A stretch of 6,365 nucleotides of DNA from a virus (Duplodnaviria > Heunggongvirae > Uroviricota > Caudoviricetes): the IMG/VR virus record IMGVR_UViG_2698536552_000010, one strand, 5' to 3'. Position 1 is the stretch's first letter. Each line of letters starts with the position of its first letter. A program made the translations under genes and the position numbers. Below the pieces are notes generated by a model, which ran no database searches, was not told where the DNA came from, and was given only the letters and a program-made list of their open reading frames with translations. Positions 1 through 6,365 of this stretch are shown one piece after another.

Positions 1-88
1 TGCATGGATAAACTACAAGACGAGATATAAACCACCCTGCATTTAAATAAACAATAAACAACATCAGAAAAATAATTCTGCTCTATGG

Positions 89-115
89 TTTACATTCAAA
101 AATATCATTTATACT
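89..115 (+). promoter_or_regulatory. Candidate sigma70 promoter for the 156-491 ORF (-35 TTTACA 89-94, -10 TATACT 110-115, 15-nt spacer)
   Basis: Hexamer matches read directly; spacer is short and AT-rich DNA gives many chance matches. Confidence 0.25.
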
Positions 116-155
116 TTTCAGAACATCACCAGCAAGGCATAAACAAGGAAACTAA

Positions 156-491
156 ATGAAGTGGATTGTGATTGATACAGTTATCCAGCCATCATGCGGA
201 ATATCTTTTTCAGTCATATGGAGTAAAATAAAATTAATAATCTGGTATCAATCGGATGCTTTCTTACCTCCTGAAAGTATATTTACACTGACTCACACAG
301 GCATCATGCTCAATAACAAAGTGCTACCTGTAACCATTTACAACGTAGTACCATTCAATAAAACATTCTGGAATTCAATCAAAAATAGCCAGGAATGCCC
401 TACAAATACAGATAACGTATTGAATGAATGCTTTAATAACCGTTGCACTCTGCAAATATGTCCTTATGGACTAAAACAACAAAGTCCATAA
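156..491 (+). CDS. Hypothetical protein, 111 aa, 6 Cys, in AT-rich DNA; convergent to the prophage late genes
   Basis: ATG at 156 preceded by SD AAGGA (145-149) at 6-nt spacing; 111-codon open frame in roughly 35% GC DNA (hand count), where chance ORFs of this length are uncommon; no family recognised. Confidence 0.45.
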
Positions 492-494
492 GGA
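461..494. repeat. Perfect 12-bp inverted repeat (TCCTTATGGACT / AGTCCATAAGGA) with 10-nt loop, spanning the stop codon of the 156-491 ORF
   Basis: Read directly: 461-472 is the reverse complement of 483-494; stop TAA at 489-491. Confidence 0.8.
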
Positions 495-504
495 GTTTAC
501 TCAC

Positions 505-547
505 ATCTGACAAAATCAATATAAACAGCCCCTCCGGAGAGGGGCTG
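505..547 (-). terminator. Rho-independent terminator for minus-strand transcription (GC stem 526-534/539-547, loop CGGA, U-tract on minus strand)
   Basis: Perfect 9-bp GC-rich stem CAGCCCCTC/GAGGGGCTG; minus strand downstream reads TTTATATTGATTTTG. Confidence 0.5.
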
Positions 548-938
548 GAGAGTGGCGCTATGTGCCATTGCATGGTGCCGGGTGCCTCCCGGTGAATTCA
601 GTACCAGCACCTGAATCCGCGATTATCCCATATACCTACTCGCTGATTGCCCCTCCGCACAGGGGGATTCACCATGCCAGTTTCTTTTAACAAACTCCCC
701 GCAAACCAGACAACAGTCAACCGCCTGAATTGTGAAGTATTTAAAAATTTCTCCCGCTAACTGATACCCGGCTAACAGTCTGGCGTTTTCTTTTTCAGCA
801 ACGGGAAAGCAACAACCACCACACCCGCCACCAGCACACCGTCAGCCAGCACTGACATTATCCGGCTGCTGCAATGCCATTCACAAAAACAGTAAGCAAT
901 CACTTTTTACCGTAACAGGTGATAATCCAGATATGTAT

Positions 939-1292
939 CTACCCCAGATGAGTAATCCGAAGTTCATCCATACCACAGGTCCTGGCTATTCTGTTGTACT
1001 CCTGAACAAGAGCAAATAATTCTGAATTAGCAACCATGAACTCATCGCAAACCCTCTGTATAGCATCACTATTCAGAATAATAACGTCTCTTCCCGAAAG
1101 ACGATCAGGAGTACAGAACAAAACTGTCAAACGGCTGAAGGCCTTTGCTCGTGCTGCATTGACTATATCAATACGCTGCCTAAGGATGAAACACCCCGAC
1201 GCCTCATCAATATTCACTCTACCCACACCATATGAATGATAAATATTTAATGCTGAAAAAACCATTAGACCGTATAACAAACACTCAATCAA
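939..1292 (-). CDS. Hypothetical cargo protein (117 codons from TTG at 1292; 108 aa from first ATG at 1265) in the stx-equivalent slot downstream of Q and the tRNA
   Basis: Protein-like composition; 6 of 11 Arg codons are AGA/AGG, the codons read by the adjacent tRNA-Arg(UCU); no clear SD, start uncertain; family not recognised. Confidence 0.5.
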   Translation of the reverse strand: MIECLLYGLMVFSALNIYHSYGVGRVNIDEASGCFILRQRIDIVNAARAKAFSRLTVLFCTPDRLSGRDVIILNSDAIQRVCDEFMVANSELFALVQEYNRIARTCGMDELRITHLG

Positions 1293-1402
1293 TACTTAAC
1301 AGAACTTTTATTTTTGACAAACATAAAATATTTTCAACAATATCCTGAGCCAGGTATATTTCAGTATAAGGCTCTGCCGGAAGGAATCTGGAAGAATGAA
1401 TA

Positions 1403-1479
1403 TGGCGCGCTGTACTGGATTCGAACCAGTGACCGATTGCTTAGAAGGCAATTGCTCTGTCCGGCTGAGCTAACAACGC
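1403..1479 (-). tRNA. tRNA-Arg (anticodon UCU), 77 nt with encoded CCA
   Basis: Minus strand folds as a cloverleaf: acceptor GCGTTGT/ACAGCGC, D stem GCTC/GAGC, anticodon stem ATTGC/GCAAT with loop CTTCTAA, T arm ACTGG-TTCGAAT-CCAGT, discriminator G, CCA. Phage-borne tRNA-Arg downstream of Q is known from Stx-type lambdoid phages. Confidence 0.9.
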
Positions 1480-1519
1480 TGAATACCGATAATGGACCGC
1501 CATCGGGGACCCGCCCCCN

Positions 1520-1768
1520 NNNNNNNNNNNNNNNNNNNNNNNNNNNNNNNNNNNNNNNNNNNNNNNNNNNNNNNNNNNNNNNNNNNNNNNNNNNNNNNNN
1601 NNNNNNNNNNNNNNNNNNNNNNNNNNNNNNNNNNNNNNNNNNNNNNNNNNNNNNNNNNNNNNNNNNNNNNNNNNNNNNNNNNNNNNNNNNNNNNNNNNNN
1701 NNNNNNNNNNNNNNNNNNNNNNNNNNNNNNNNNNNNNNNNNNNNNNNNNNNNNNNNNNNNNNNNNNNN
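1520..1768. other. Run of 249 N (gap or masked sequence); position and size would fit one to three further phage tRNA genes
   Basis: N run read directly; the tRNA suggestion is inference from the ileZ-argN-argO arrangement in Stx phages. Confidence 0.9.
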
Positions 1769-1900
1769 TGCTGTTTTAGCATGTCTTTTCCTTTTCCGGT
1801 TAACGTGACACACCAATAACTCTTGTCGAAAAAGCCAGCAAGCTGAAAGACAGGTATTCACCGCCACCAGCGCGTTTACTGTACTGACGCGATTTCAGTC

Positions 1901-1926
1901 ATAAAAAACCCGCTCGGCGGCGGGTT
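1901..1926 (-). terminator. Rho-independent terminator on minus strand, candidate tR' (Q-dependent readthrough site)
   Basis: Minus strand reads AACCCGC-CGCCGA-GCGGGTT followed by TTTTTTAT, about 40-65 nt downstream of the candidate PR' -10. Confidence 0.55.
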
Positions 1927-1973
1927 GTAGAAACTCTTCTAACGTCAGGCATAAAACGCCCATCGTTATAACG

Positions 1974-2001
1974 AATTTACCACAGATTCCGGAAAAATCA
2001 A
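1974..2001 (-). promoter_or_regulatory. Candidate late promoter PR' (minus strand -35 TTGATT 2001-1996, 16-nt spacer, -10 TAAATT 1979-1974) just downstream of the Q stop
   Basis: Hexamers read directly; position matches the lambdoid Q-PR'-tR' arrangement. Confidence 0.4.
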
Positions 2002-2026
2002 CCTTGTTACCTAGTTACCTTTTTTA
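1991..2026. repeat. Left copy of a direct repeat flanking the second N run (shares cggaaaaatcaacc + tagttacctttttta with 2295-2323, plus an extra 8 bp)
   Basis: Read directly; the extra 8 bp (TAACAAGG on the minus strand) creates the TAA stop after ...KKVTR. Confidence 0.85.
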
Positions 2027-3125
2027 NNNNNNNNNNNNNNNNNNNNNNNNNNNNNNNNNNNNNNNNNNNNNNNNNNNNNNNNNNNNNNNNNNNNNNNNNN
2101 NNNNNNNNNNNNNNNNNNNNNNNNNNNNNNNNNNNNNNNNNNNNNNNNNNNNNNNNNNNNNNNNNNNNNNNNNNNNNNNNNNNNNNNNNNNNNNNNNNNN
2201 NNNNNNNNNNNNNNNNNNNNNNNNNNNNNNNNNNNNNNNNNNNNNNNNNNNNNNNNNNNNNNNNNNNNNNNNNNNNNNNNNNNNNNNNNNNNNNCGGAAA
2301 AATCAACCTAGTTACCTTTTTTAACTGCCGCTCAGCCCATGCTTCTTCAATATCAAACCGAGTCACCAGCGCATCATAGAATTTCTTAACTGTTTTTTCC
2401 CATGACGCGCGTGTTATCTGGTTTGTCACCTCGCATATAGCATTAAATGCCTCCGTTGATGGTAGTCTTTCATAGCCACGACCACCACAACGCTGGCAGT
2501 CTCTGATAACAGGCATACCACGTTTTACCGACTCTTCACGATGAATGGCGACACCACGCCCACGGCAATCCTTACAGGCGGTGGAAACCTCACCCTTTCC
2601 GCCACACTCCGGACAGGCAACTTTTACCACCTCCCTGACTTTTTTCCATTCTTCCCAGTAAGACGGATACACACCTTTCGTACACTTTGCCCATACCGGC
2701 GGCTTACCATCCGGATACTGGATCTTGTTTGTAAAAACCTCGCTTTCAATAAATTTTTTTCCGTGACAGCAGGGGCACTGTTTTTTGCTCGCCGCGCTAC
2801 GGGCATAATCTTCAAACGCATACGAAGCCATAATACGCATCACTGCCGGTTTTATTTCTGCCGGGAGTTTTCTTAACGCCGCCACGCGATCACACCGACT
2901 GAGTGCATATTCTGTCAGCAATTCTGTTGCCCGCTCTCTGTCATTCATACTAATGCCCATTTTCCCAAGGAACGCAGAAACCCCCATCTCAGCCCGATTC
3001 TGTGTCATGCCCTGCGCGGCCATCACATCAGTGATACTCAGCGCATCTTTCGACGTTGAGGCCGATGCATCAGTCAGGCCGGGGGATTTTGGGGAGTAGT
3101 ATTTCGGTAAATCTTCCAGTTTCAT
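2007..3125 (-). CDS. quuQ: Late antiterminator Q (Qin quuQ-like), with four DnaJ-like Cys-rich repeats; 3' end crosses the N run, about 273 aa if it ends at ...KKVTR
   Basis: Position directly downstream of rusA with ATGA start/stop overlap and upstream of PR'/tR'; motifs CPCCHG, CPECGGKG, CKDCRGRG, CQRCGGRG; N-terminus MKLEDLPKYYSPKSP resembles Qin QuuQ as I recall it. Only 2295-3125 is directly read. Confidence 0.8.
   Translation of the reverse strand: MKLEDLPKYYSPKSPGLTDASASTSKDALSITDVMAAQGMTQNRAEMGVSAFLGKMGISMNDRERATELLTEYALSRCDRVAALRKLPAEIKPAVMRIMASYAFEDYARSAASKKQCPCCHGKKFIESEVFTNKIQYPDGKPPVWAKCTKGVYPSYWEEWKKVREVVKVACPECGGKGEVSTACKDCRGRGVAIHREESVKRGMPVIRDCQRCGGRGYERLPSTEAFNAICEVTNQITRASWEKTVKKFYDALVTRFDIEEAWAERQLKKVTRLIFPXXXXXXXXXXXXXXXXXXXXXXXXXXXXXXXXXXXXXXXXXXXXXXXXXXXXXXXXXXXXXXXXXXXXXXXXXXXXXXXXXXXXXXXXXXKKVTR
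2027..2294. other. Run of 268 N (gap or masked sequence) inside or at the 3' end of the Q gene
   Basis: N run read directly; the two flanking repeat copies are offset by 297 bp, keeping the Q frame. Confidence 0.9.
2295..2323. repeat. Right copy of the direct repeat flanking the second N run
   Basis: cggaaaaatcaacctagttacctttttta matches 1991-2026 except for the 8-bp indel. Confidence 0.85.
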
Positions 3126-3502
3126 TTTTTGACCTGCCCTTCAAGCATTATGGGATAAATCTTCACCCCCAGACGTCCACCAGATACTGGCTGAGCACGA
3201 ACGATATTGATTTCATCAAACTGCTCATCGTCCATTAGCAACCCCGCATGCGTCAGCGCATCCAGCGGCGCTTTCAGAATATTGTCCAGGTCACGGCGGC
3301 GCTTATCCGGTGGTTCTGCAATAATTTTTATTGCCAACCTTCCGGACAGGCTTAATTTCAGCCGCTGCTGGCGAACAATAAGCGCCACTGCCCGGCGATA
3401 ACGCTCCCCGGCTTTTGATACAAAATATGTGCTGCCACGACGACGCCAGTAAGTGTTCACCGTCGGCGGGTAAGGTAAAACAAATTCTATGCGCTCGGTC
3501 AT
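3122..3502 (-). CDS. rusA: Crossover junction endodeoxyribonuclease RusA (Holliday junction resolvase), 126 aa
   Basis: Contains the RusA signature PPDKRRRDLDNILKAPLDAL and N-terminal LPYPPTVNTYW; ATG immediately follows the upstream TAA (TAAATG) and its stop overlaps the Q start (ATGA). Confidence 0.9.
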   Translation of the reverse strand: MTERIEFVLPYPPTVNTYWRRRGSTYFVSKAGERYRRAVALIVRQQRLKLSLSGRLAIKIIAEPPDKRRRDLDNILKAPLDALTHAGLLMDDEQFDEINIVRAQPVSGGRLGVKIYPIMLEGQVKK

Positions 3503-4561
3503 TTATGCTTTCCACTTCAGAACACCCGAATTTCTCGCGTGCATTAAAAAACGAATCAGCAACAACAGCTGACTGCCGTGTTTCTCTTCAAAATCTTTTA
3601 CTCCGGCATGTAGTTCGTTACGGCATTTACGGCATAACGGAATAACAAACAAATCATCAGCCTTTGTTCCCATCCCTCCCAGTCCATGACCAATGATGTG
3701 ATGCGGATCATCTGCCTGATTGCCACACGTCATGCATTTCTGCGTTTTTACCCAGCGCGTGTATACAGGCATCTCTTCCCGTTGTGATTTCTGGCGCTGG
3801 AGATACTGAGCCGGTGACTCCGGATCAACGGCAATGCTGACCACCGTCTTTTCCTGTGGTGGGTTCTGTTGCTGGTGGACGTGAGGCAGTAACGCAATAT
3901 TTTTTGTGCGCTGCTTCAGTATGCTGGTGGCTGTCTGCTCTCCCGGTATGATGTCGCTTTCACTGTACACAGAGCGAATTTTTTCCGCACGCAACCCCAG
4001 CGAACGACGTAATACCGCTTCCGGTAGCGCGTCCGCCACCTGATTGCGGACCGCCCACCAGGATAATTCAGCCAGAGATAATTCACGCTCCTGCGTACCG
4101 CTTATTGCGTGACCGATGACGTCAATCATCCATGCTGACAGGTTTTGATGAGCAAGTTGCTCGAGTGATTCGGATGTCTGGTCACGCAGCTGGTTGTCGC
4201 AGTGCCAGCACAACACCATTGCGCCGGTACCATAACGGTGAATGACGGTTTCGCTGTGATGATAATCGCCGTGTGGCCACTGGCAGGATTTAATATGGCG
4301 CAACAGCCAGTCAGACAATGCACCAGCACCACCAGCAGCACGAATCACCCGTGCGTTACTGAAAAACGGCAGCAATGTTTTGTCTTCCACCAGCGGCTGG
4401 CGAGCGGCAGGAACGACCCCGGACGGCAGATTACGCATGCTTTTTGGTTCCGGCTCCACCAGTATTCTGCCGTTATGGAATGCTGACATTGATTCACGGC
4501 CTGGCTTAACGATAACCAGACCGAGTTCCGGTACCAGAACAGGTCGAAGTAATACCCGCAC
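3503..4561 (-). CDS. ydfU: DUF968-family prophage protein (ydfU-like), 352 aa, GTG start, C-terminal HNH-like Cys/His motif
   Basis: Long minus-strand ORF with GGAGG 4 nt upstream of GTG at 4561; C-terminal CMTCG...PHHI...CRKCRNELH; sits between rem-like and rusA as in Qin. Confidence 0.8.
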   Translation of the reverse strand: MRVLLRPVLVPELGLVIVKPGRESMSAFHNGRILVEPEPKSMRNLPSGVVPAARQPLVEDKTLLPFFSNARVIRAAGGAGALSDWLLRHIKSCQWPHGDYHHSETVIHRYGTGAMVLCWHCDNQLRDQTSESLEQLAHQNLSAWMIDVIGHAISGTQERELSLAELSWWAVRNQVADALPEAVLRRSLGLRAEKIRSVYSESDIIPGEQTATSILKQRTKNIALLPHVHQQQNPPQEKTVVSIAVDPESPAQYLQRQKSQREEMPVYTRWVKTQKCMTCGNQADDPHHIIGHGLGGMGTKADDLFVIPLCRKCRNELHAGVKDFEEKHGSQLLLLIRFLMHARNSGVLKWKA

Positions 4562-4636
4562 ATTACCTCCAGATCCGTTGCTGGAATGTGCGGGACGGAC
4601 GCGTTGGCCGTTCGGAGTAAGGGAGCCTGACGGAGA

Positions 4637-4918
4637 TTATCCAGTGACGGTAGTCGAGGCTAAGGGCTTTTTTAACCTCGCATCCGCGCCTGCGGTAACA
4701 CTGAATGAGCCATTCGGCCTGTTCTTCAGTGCATGGGGGATGCTGGTACCAATCAGATTTAAATGCGTGAGAGCGCCGCCCGTGCCTGCTGGCAAAGACG
4801 GCTGAATTATCAGAATTGTGTAGTCTGGAAGGCAGTGGCTGACAATAGCGCCATTCTCAACGCGCACAGTATAGAGGCCATCTTCACTAAAAATTTCACG
4901 TAATTCTTCGATTTTCAT
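4637..4918 (-). CDS. rem: rem-like small prophage protein, 93 aa from ATG at 4918
   Basis: SD GGAAGGA 8 nt upstream of ATG; lies between hokD and ydfU as rem does in Qin; protein identity is from context, not recalled sequence. Confidence 0.45.
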   Translation of the reverse strand: MKIEELREIFSEDGLYTVRVENGAIVSHCLPDYTILIIQPSLPAGTGGALTHLNLIGTSIPHALKNRPNGSFSVTAGADARLKKPLASTTVTG

Positions 4919-5000
4919 CAACAGAATCCTTCCAGATAAATAGCACTCCCCTGTTCGGGGTCCATCCCTCTTCTCCCTGCGCGCTACTTAAGTATTTTTG

Positions 5001-5030
5001 ATTCTATTCCGGCACCATCTAAAACTTCAA
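5001..5030 (-). promoter_or_regulatory. Candidate sigma70 promoter for the rem-ydfU-rusA-Q transcript (-35 TTGAAG 5030-5025, 18-nt spacer, -10 TAGAAT 5006-5001)
   Basis: Hexamers read directly; located between the hokD terminator and the rem-like start. Confidence 0.3.
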
Positions 5031-5035
5031 ACGCG

Positions 5036-5070
5036 TTGAAAATAAAAACAAAAACCCGCCGAAGCGGGTT
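5036..5070 (-). terminator. Rho-independent terminator downstream of hokD
   Basis: Minus strand reads AACCCGC-TTCG-GCGGGTT followed by TTTGTTTTTATTTTC. Confidence 0.65.
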
Positions 5071-5138
5071 AAGTGTGGGTGCATTGAGGATGCCTGCCCC
5101 ATCAGAGGTGGCGAGGGATTTCTCCCCCGCCTGGTCTC

Positions 5139-5294
5139 TTACTCCTCAGGTTCGTAAGCTGTGAAGACAGCGACCTCCGTCTGGCCGGTTCGAATTCGTA
5201 CCTCGCAGAGGTCTTTCCTCGTTACCAGTGCCGTCACTATGACGGTTAAACAGATGACGATCAGGGCGATTAACATCGCCTTTTGCTGCTTCAT
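5139..5294 (-). CDS. hokD: Hok-family type I toxin HokD (RelF), 51 aa
   Basis: Translation MKQQKAMLIALIVICLTVIVTALVTRKDLCEVRIRTGQTEVAVFTAYEPEE matches the HokD sequence as I recall it; SD AAGGAG 9 nt upstream of the internal ATG at 5294. Confidence 0.9.
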   Translation of the reverse strand: MKQQKAMLIALIVICLTVIVTALVTRKDLCEVRIRTGQTEVAVFTAYEPEE

Positions 5295-5505
5295 AGCCTG
5301 CTTCTCCTTGCCTTTCGGCACGTAAGAGGCTAACCTAGATTTGCCGTTCATAGATTGAGCCTCAGATTAATGTTAAGCGTCTTGCCGGACGCGTAATGTT
5401 AACTGGGGCTTTTCTCTATCTGCCTTTTGGTGTTCATGCCTGAGACAGATAGCCTCAAGCACCCGCTGCAATTCTACTTAACTCTCCTTTTCCCGCAAAC
5501 CGTTT

Positions 5506-5589
5506 TTATCCCCAGCGGCAAATCGAATACACCACCAGCGCCACCGCCATCGCAATTCCTACCGTTGTTAATGCTTCAGGCCAGGTCAT
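5506..5589 (-). CDS. Candidate 27-aa hydrophobic peptide ([27 protein letters not shown]), start overlapping the upstream stop (ATGA)
   Basis: Found by hand translation; single predicted transmembrane-like segment; below the ORF track length cut-off; no dedicated SD. Confidence 0.3.
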
Positions 5590-5930
5590 CGTAAAATATC
5601 CTCCACGCTTATCAGTCCGTTCCGCTCCAGATAACTCATCGCCTTATCCGGTAATTTGCAGTCTGGCTTCGCTTTCCTCAGTTGCCAGGTTAACTGCTTT
5701 ACCAGCATGGTTAACTCATCGACCAGACGCTGATATCCCACTGGTTTGTATTCATGCAATTTACCGGCTGGCTCTGCTGCCAGCGATACCAGTGCGATTT
5801 CCAGAACAGCAATATCCATCTTATATGTGCGGATGATGTCATGGTCGATTGTGCCCGGTATGCACAGTCTCTGTGCTTCAATAGTCTCCTCTGCGTGAGC
5901 TATTAACTGCTCTCTGGTAAAAGTCGTCAT
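5586..5930 (-). CDS. Hypothetical protein, 114 aa, paralogous at its N-terminus to the 55-aa ORF upstream
   Basis: ATG at 5930 overlaps the upstream stop (ATGA); shares MTT(I/F)T(K/R)E and IAL(A/V)SL(E/A)AEP motifs with 5927-6094; family not recognised. Confidence 0.6.
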
Positions 5931-6094
5931 GCCGTAGCCCCTTCTTGATATTTTTCAAACCAGAACACAACCGGCTCTGCTTCCAGCGATGCCAGCGCAA
6001 TCCGTGCCAGTTCCATTTGTTCACCACGGGTAAGCCCGTTTTCAAGCGGGTTTTTAATGAACAATTCAATACGTTCTTTGGTAATAGTGGTCAT
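5927..6094 (-). CDS. Hypothetical protein, 55 aa ([55 protein letters not shown])
   Basis: Found by hand translation; SD GGAG (TAAGGAGtaacacATG) 8 nt upstream of ATG at 6094, immediately after the upstream TAA. Confidence 0.55.
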
Positions 6095-6104
6095 GTGTTA
6101 CTCC

Positions 6105-6335
6105 TTAACCCGCAGTGCTTTCAACTGATGAGGGGAACAAAATCTTTTCATCAAACCCTGCATTCATATCATGAACAGCAACACACCAATCCATCGACGA
6201 ACGATTATCAAGAGCCTCCATGATTTCATCCATGCGGCGTAGGTCATACAGGTAAATGCTTTTATCGCCAATGGTGTAAAAGCCAATTTTTTTCGGTGAT
6301 GGATGAGGTGTACTGGCAATAGCGGACACTACCAT
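6105..6335 (-). CDS. Hypothetical protein, at least 76 aa; frame stays open to the window edge, so the gene may start beyond 6365
   Basis: Minus-strand ORF ending TAA at 6105; no stop in frame between 6336 and 6365 and no SD before ATG 6335. Confidence 0.45.
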   Translation of the reverse strand: MVVSAIASTPHPSPKKIGFYTIGDKSIYLYDLRRMDEIMEALDNRSSMDWCVAVHDMNAGFDEKILFPSSVESTAG

Positions 6336-6365
6336 TTGTTCTTTTTTTAAGCAGCCATCTGATGA

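Follow-up and report, generated by a model that had tools for sequence, protein, structure and literature searches.

The window, by which we mean the whole stretch of 6,365 nucleotides analysed here, is the late-regulatory region of a lambdoid Escherichia coli prophage. Its minus strand carries hok/sok (5139-5464), a DUF968 gene (3503-4561), rusA (3122-3502), the gene of the antiterminator Q (ending at 3125), a tRNA-Arg (1403-1479), a small DUF3927/TciB-like ORF (772-903) and, at 517-706, a predicted sRNA gene of the STnc100 family. The plus strand carries one ORF of 111 codons at 156-491, and its orientation opposite to the late genes, pointed out in an earlier reading made from the letters alone (hereafter the sequence-only reading), is borne out by the positions of hokD, DUF968, RusA, Q, tRNA and DUF3927, all on the minus strand. 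Two masked runs of N (1519-1768 and 2028-2294) are responsible for spurious very low GC values and for stretches of "X" in the list of ORFs. With these runs excluded, the GC fraction is 0.488 at 526-6365 against 0.330 at 1-525 and 0.345 in the ORF itself, and the compositional break at the left end is therefore real, as the depressed GC noted earlier for 1-500 had suggested. A gene on the minus strand of 1-550, which the sequence-only reading had named as evidence against itself, was considered and rejected: the ORF scan gave no minus-strand ORF longer than 46 aa overlapping 1-560, and the longest one (46 aa, 433-573) overlaps the terminator of the sRNA.

The ORF at 156-491 starts with ATG, agrees with the iraL class in every feature open to in silico examination and, on these grounds, is the known gene iraL, coding for an anti-adaptor of RssB. 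Its product is identical in 110 of 111 residues to IraL of strain CFT073 (WP_000871291.1, c1429), and its identity to K-12 IraM is 61%. At the DNA level, positions 1-620 differ from CFT073 at four sites (122 A/G, 153 T/C, 376 C/T and 386 T/C), two of them in the coding sequence, one being synonymous, and two within positions 122-155. The iraL class, as defined by Hryckowian et al. (2014), comprises genes whose coding sequence matches that of CFT073 iraL in 95% or more of its nucleotides and whose upstream promoter region does so in 96% or more, and with four differences in 620 aligned bases the gene in the window falls within both limits. A Pfam scan of the product returned nothing meaningful (top match Nairovirus NSm, E = 0.056), and its family became apparent from NCBIfam, PDB and PHROGs: NCBIfam NF007393, "anti-adapter protein IraM", matches with 162 bits over a cut-off of 121 (E = 4.7e-48; residues 1-110 on positions 1-113 of the 114 in the model), residues 1-78 align without gaps to chain A of PDB 8twd (IraM; E = 6e-31), with ~65% identity in this core, and PHROG 4407 matches with E = 3e-72. 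The sequence-only reading had seen no recognisable family and six cysteines; the former statement does not survive these matches, and the cysteines number five (C14, C81, C92, C97 and C102). Positions 1-1300 match hundreds of E. coli chromosomes at 99.5% identity or more, where the ORF is annotated as "anti-adapter protein IraM", which is also the RefSeq name of the product.

From alignment to IraM, a PmrD-like beta-barrel core with three clusters of RssB contacts can be inferred for the IraL of the window, since 10 of the 13 residues with which IraM contacts RssB in the crystal are identical: all five in cluster I, three of four in cluster II (T13S) and two of four in cluster III (H63N, I64V). 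One of these contact residues is C14, whereas C81, C92, C97 and C102 belong to the C-terminal tail, a part that is absent from the crystallised IraM construct. The substitution at 376 replaces by serine the leucine at residue 74 that is conserved in both CFT073 IraL and IraM. Among 85 surveyed loci, the protein of CFT073 is found in 76 and the S74 protein in five, and none of these 85 has a frameshift or a premature stop in iraL. Of 5426 complete E. coli genomes, 1446 (~27%) have the gene, in up to three copies, and deposited phage records, for instance vB_EcoS-640R1, also have it. As a separate observation, iraL has three matches in PLSDB, all in non-mobilizable records of 175-730 kb, which are suspected to be pieces of chromosome.

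[quoted passage not shown] This match of sequence predicts the transcription start at A123, with a 5' UTR of 33 nt (123-155), and TATACT (110-115) as the -10 element of a σ70 promoter (89-115), whose hexamers were assigned by reading back from 123; the -35 element is probably TTTACA (89-94), with a spacer of 15 nt. Positions 1-121 are identical to CFT073, and close to the start the window has A instead of G at -1 and T instead of C at +31. A generic promoter scan made no call at 89-115. The most polymorphic part of the cassette is the -35 region, with four alleles at 93-95, of which the window has the CFT073 version. The good Shine-Dalgarno sequence reported earlier is present (AAGGA, 145-149, 6 nt before the ATG), and the 5' UTR gave no stable fold (z = +0.9).

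Upstream of the promoter, on the minus strand, lies a candidate PhoP box, the direct repeat TGTTTA-TTGTT-TATTTA (44-60), which has one mismatch to (T/G)GTTTA-N5-(T/G)GTTTA and, reversed in orientation, covers -79 to -63 relative to the transcription start. It is the sole match in the window at up to one mismatch, where 0.13 are expected, and at least one such match arises in 23 of 200 shuffles, making the site not significant when taken alone. It is retained as a lead because the homologous site in the paralogue of Stx2d phages, described below, has the perfect consensus (0 of 200 shuffles); the aligned site of the Stx2c paralogue has one mismatch. The site is present in 83 of the 85 iraL loci, and the iraL family may, like iraM, respond to PhoP. 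Regarding other inputs, iraL rises by 1.6 log2-fold on a shift from 23 to 37 °C (PMC12890032), and IraL levels are increased in a fur mutant.

The boundaries of the AT-rich block were set by comparing E. coli 042, which has an identical layout and was used to extend the sequence leftwards beyond position 1, with phages devoid of iraL. On the left, homology to JLK-2012 and PhiR5_1 ends at window position -104, at the start codon of a divergent DUF1737/nanS-p esterase gene; on the right, homology is back at 526/527 (PhiR5_1, Stx phage) or at 561-569 (JLK-2012, mEp460). Boundaries at -104 and 526 give a plus-strand iraL cassette of ~630 bp, defined by its GC of 0.33 and by the breaks in homology, of which the window, cutting off its left part, shows 1-525. 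The sequence-only reading had proposed an AT-rich block at 1-550: its AT-richness stands and its start at position 1 does not, the block extending ~103 bp further to the left. The cassette is flanked by the prophage sRNA on one side and the gene of the NanS-p esterase on the other, and iraL is antisense to the late operon that depends on Q. JLK-2012 and PhiR5_1 have the esterase gene next to the sRNA region, with no iraL cassette in between, the Stx phages compared lack iraL, and in mEp460 the slot holds unrelated cargo. This absence from syntenic phages, a comparison that had been proposed as a check, and the contrast in GC (0.33 against 0.49) both support the earlier idea of a horizontally acquired AT-rich moron. 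In all of the 84 further iraL loci, save where a contig end cuts them, the cassette and the reference flanks are collinear through both junctions, to -145 or beyond on the left and to +735 or beyond on the right. In 36 of 85 loci, the nanS-p gene beside iraL is shortened to 62 aa. With its exact boundaries given, the cassette can be placed in the same slot region of the late operon where the stx genes lie in Stx phages.

Facing iraL is the sRNA gene, for which Rfam RF02076 gives 132.4 bits at 706-517, well over its gathering score of 47; the alignment takes in the whole model (positions 1-206 of 206), with its terminal stem and U-tract. The gene is convergent with iraL, and its 3' end lies ~25 nt from the iraL stop. 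Both the Rfam alignment and the terminator scan assign an intrinsic terminator on the minus strand to 526-547, where CAGCCCCTC-TCCG-GAGGGGCTG can form a stem of 9 bp, 7 of them GC pairs, closed by a loop of 4 nt and followed by a U-rich tail. The hairpin is terminator-like on the minus strand only, with the tail TTTATATTGA, and its minus-strand fold has -20.3 kcal/mol (z = -4.6). The sequence-only reading had taken 526-547 for a terminator of the opposing strand, and this agrees with its identification as the terminal stem of a full-length STnc100. The sequence of 526-547 is shared with phages lacking iraL and with the Stx2c/2d paralogue locus, and members of the STnc100 family occupy the same position in mEp460, JLK-2012 and Stx2c/2d prophages. 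Both STnc100 and the related PasD have been described as sRNAs of prophages (Zhu, Shabalina and Storz 2026, bioRxiv 10.64898/2026.05.13.724894), and related STnc100 copies have been detected by RT-PCR in vesicles of STEC (PMC12370729).

Positions 1-550 are thus, with high confidence, two known elements arranged tail to tail, the iraL anti-adaptor moron and the 3' end and terminator of an STnc100 sRNA. The function of iraL has been studied by Hryckowian et al. (2014, mBio, PMC4045071): IraL, in the L74 allele, binds RssB in two-hybrid and pulldown assays, CFT073 and S. sonnei have less RpoS in log phase once iraL is deleted, the half-life of RpoS then falling from ~5 min to ~2.5 min, K-12 provided with iraL and its native promoter shows increased RpoS, and the gene is over-represented among UPEC, prostatitis and Shigella isolates. 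RssB binding and stabilisation of RpoS are attributed to the S74 allele of the window from this literature on a 99%-identical copy.

Two other readings of the ORF have little probability left. One of them takes it for the orthologue of K-12 iraM, induced through PhoP/PhoQ upon Mg2+ starvation and binding both domains of RssB; although the RefSeq name, the score above the cut-off of the IraM subfamily HMM and the repeat at 44-60, perfect in the sister paralogue, all point that way, it is very unlikely, since the product has 61% identity to K-12 IraM against 99% to IraL, homology to the iraM locus is limited to the coding region (~70%) with unrelated flanks, and the context is a lambdoid late region and not the border of e14. 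These identity values already refute orthology, and iraL and iraM form two cleanly separate classes with different patterns of RssB interaction (PMC4045071). According to the other, the block would be H-NS-silenced or decaying foreign DNA with an ORF devoid of any current role in the host, in keeping with the low GC, the truncation of the neighbouring nanS-p as a sign of local decay, and the regulation of the paralogue iraM by H-NS stated in the title of Battesti et al. (2012). This is just as improbable, however, as the protein is nearly invariant (identical in the 76 loci mentioned above) and free of disruptions, and the transcription in mid-log, the deletion phenotype in two species and the enrichment in UPEC, prostatitis and Shigella isolates also speak against it. 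While the mid-log mRNA and the drop in RpoS on deletion (PMC4045071) contradict complete silencing of iraL by H-NS, partial control of the H-NS type is possible because of the rise at 37 °C and the regulation of iraM by H-NS.

A further alternative concerns the hairpin over the stop codon. As the sequence-only reading had described, an inverted repeat with perfect arms of 12 bp contains the stop of iraL (TAA, 489-491). The stop falls in the right arm; the arms (461-472 and 483-494) are 100% complementary and enclose a loop of 10 nt on the plus strand. The left arm codes for P-Y-G-L, and the loop and right arm for a four-residue extension, QQSP, plus the stop. The hairpin is specific to iraL, and neither iraM nor the Stx2c/2d paralogue has it; compared with the latter, codon 108 of iraL has changed from TAA to CAA and ~28 nt have been inserted, which together yield QQSP and the right arm, and judged from this alignment the hairpin is an insertion of the iraL lineage. 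Instead of being an incidental scar of that insertion, it could serve iraL as a functional RNA element, for instance as a stabiliser of the 3' end, a processing site or a weak terminator, a proposal that is conceivable and rather doubtful. Its RNA fold (-17.5 kcal/mol, z = -6.3, 0 of 200 shuffles) puts the perfect stem far beyond chance, the terminator scan found no intrinsic terminator for iraL on the plus strand of 1-1000, and the commonest polymorphism, the synonymous A470G of 41 of 84 loci, breaks the pairing in DNA and keeps it in RNA as a G-U pair, with 39 of 84 loci having the perfect form. On the other hand, the hairpin does not look like a rho-independent terminator, having 5 GC pairs in 12, the tail GTTTACTC with 4 T in 8 in place of a U-tract, and no call in the scan; it is missing from both relatives, and the remaining variants (T461C, G493C) simply break end pairs. 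No compensatory double changes occur across the 85 loci, whose sequences are at least 98% alike and give this comparison almost no power.

Returning to the reading of the block as an anti-adaptor moron facing an sRNA terminator, iraL would be expressed from its own σ70 promoter within the prophage, and the 111-aa IraL would bind RssB, a response-regulator-like adaptor, which would then no longer deliver RpoS to ClpXP, leaving RpoS stabilised in the exponentially growing lysogen. The 12-bp hairpin over the stop codon may serve as a 3' stabiliser. The sRNA terminator would, in the lysogen, also limit antisense read-through into iraL from the side of the tRNA, DUF3927 and the sRNA, while late transcription modified by Q would pass this terminator and cross iraL in antisense before reaching nanS-p and the lysis genes. 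That iraL and STnc100 form a convergent pair with overlapping transcripts, and that the iraL family retains control by PhoP, is a speculative combination and on balance improbable. On this view iraL transcripts, for want of an intrinsic terminator on their strand, would either end at the 12-bp hairpin, or be trimmed to it, or else continue in antisense across the sRNA gene. If true, expression of an RpoS stabiliser would be coupled to a prophage regulatory RNA, and iraL, whose family keeps the PhoP box, might be inducible by low Mg2+ and not in log phase alone. The iraL block and the sRNA terminator are otherwise already known biology, to which the present analysis adds anatomy; their importance lies in the higher RpoS that IraL confers on growing uropathogenic E. 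coli and Shigella, and in its spread by lambdoid prophages.

The comparison also brought up a third paralogue of the IraM family, of 107 aa and 72-74% identical to IraL (e.g., WP_001303568.1; phages 2851 and 1717), which lies directly after stx2B-STnc100, in convergent orientation, in phages of the Stx2c and Stx2d types and in a part of the Stx2a phages. It was counted in 41 phage records and in 236 of 5426 genomes, and is mostly unannotated in the phage records; the literature library searched contained no paper on it. STEC with high log-phase RpoS lack iraL (PMC4045071), and the paralogue is an obvious candidate explanation for these strains. If so, Stx2c/2d lysogens would gain a phage-encoded route to high RpoS. 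Though outside the window, the gene beside stx2B is the more useful lead.

Among the systems known, the closest is IraL of CFT073, which has the same promoter, transcription start, 5' UTR, 3' hairpins and prophage neighbourhood as the window. The gene order of the potB prophage of CFT073 is also the one found here (Q, tRNAs, DUF3927, iraL on the opposite strand, a DUF1737 fragment and holin), with the differences that CFT073 has an IS200 between Q and the tRNAs, L74, G at -1, C at +31 and one synonymous change. K-12 IraM (b1160, PDB 8twd) belongs to the same family, with all five cysteines and 10 of the 13 RssB contacts kept and a PmrD-like N-terminal core. In contrast, its 107-aa product lacks the QQSP extension and its gene the hairpin at the stop codon, the gene is found at the border of prophage e14 with a promoter and a 3' flank unrelated to those of iraL, and its induction by PhoP/PhoQ on Mg2+ starvation and its pattern of interaction with the RssB domains are reported to differ from those of IraL. 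As regards STnc100/PasD, the full model including the terminator stem is matched on the minus strand at 517-706, and the window differs from other STnc100 loci in having an anti-adaptor gene wedged between the sRNA and the esterase gene; in mEp460 and JLK-2012, a different 3' module replaces the stem of 526-547. Finally, the paralogue of Stx2c/2d/2a phages sits in the slot and orientation of iraL, antisense to the late operon and upstream of nanS-p or a holin gene. It is homologous to iraL in upstream region, coding sequence and terminator, and differs from it by a -10 element TATAAT, a consensus or near-consensus PhoP box and the lack of both the stop-codon hairpin and the ~28-nt insertion.

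When considered across related prophages, the slot occupied by iraL, which encodes the 111-aa RssB anti-adaptor, can also hold another gene: in sequence beyond the window, the E. coli Stx2c and Stx2d prophages (4016–4339 in both loci, L096 and L097, respectively) encode a third IraM-family paralogue, which is 107 aa long with 72–74% identity to IraL. There it lies directly after stx2B and the prophage sRNA gene STnc100, convergent with both. Of 5426 complete E. coli genomes, 236 carry this paralogue, as do 41 phage records, where it mostly lacks annotation; the phages, among them 2851 and 1717, are converting phages of the Stx2c, Stx2 and Stx2a types. The literature searched yielded no publication about this gene. 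At the protein level, IraL residues 81–102 (window 396–461) carry four C-terminal cysteines (C81-x10-C92-x4-C97-x4-C102) and end in ICPYG. All four cysteines are conserved between IraL, its K-12 paralogue IraM, the protein from the Stx2c prophage and a homologue from Citrobacter; in the Stx2d copy there is a C92G substitution. IraM was crystallised in a truncated form without this cysteine-bearing tail, which the structure report called flexible; the tail may serve in metal binding, in redox chemistry or in some other way.

In the hairpin spanning the iraL stop codon, the right arm consists largely of the 9-mer GTCCATAAG (window 484–492). PhiR5_1 and PPwrbA_EH2201, phages that lack iraL, carry this 9-mer as well, directly adjoining their STnc100 terminator (about 3990–4005 in L007); its presence in both places may be coincidental or a trace left by recombination. 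The short ORFs overlapping the STnc100 gene, at 562–690 on the plus strand and 598–720 on the minus strand, are probably not genes, and RefSeq labels one of them as an incomplete “hypothetical protein”. Further along, the 117-aa ORF at 939–1292 on the minus strand matches the full model of PHROG 2873, of unknown function (E = 3.7e-70), and no CDS is annotated at the corresponding position in RefSeq E. coli 042 or CFT073. Downstream of Q, where the late terminator tR' is expected, the minus strand carries a strong hairpin resembling a terminator (1907–1926), formed by AACCCGCCGCCGAGCGGGTT with TTTTAT after it. Together with the STnc100 terminator (547–526), this candidate implies that late transcripts must pass at least two terminators; they would then traverse iraL in antisense before reaching the lysis genes.

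Two stretches of the window are masked as runs of N (1519–1768 and 2028–2294), giving false, very low GC values and runs of X in the ORF translations, and rendering the Q ORF artificially long (2007–3125). In E. coli 042, the region matching the first run contains a tRNA-Ile. Upstream of the DUF968-rusA-Q block lies a hokD/sok type I toxin-antitoxin locus (5139–5464, minus strand; Rfam sok, 112 bits).

On the other side of iraL, to the left of window position 1, its divergent neighbour is a nanS-p type sialic-acid esterase gene with an N-terminal DUF1737 domain (8710–8896 in L001, and equivalent loci), which is full length (616–621 aa) in 36 of the 85 surveyed iraL loci; in another 36, an internal deletion leaves a product of only 62 aa. 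Among the 85 loci, the iraL cassette varies most in the presumed -35 region (window 89–97), which is represented by the alleles TTTACAATC (40 loci), TTTACATTC (26, the window and CFT073 among them), TTTAATTC, which arose from a 1-bp deletion (11), and TTTATATTC (8); these alleles may differ in expression level. Also upstream of iraL, a PhoP-box-like direct repeat with one mismatch is located at window 44–60 on the minus strand. Since this repeat is homologous both to the perfect consensus PhoP box of the Stx2d paralogue (L097 3903–3919) and to the one-mismatch box of the Stx2c paralogue (L096 3904–3920), sequence comparison suggests that PhoP control, already known for iraM, extends across the IraM/IraL family.
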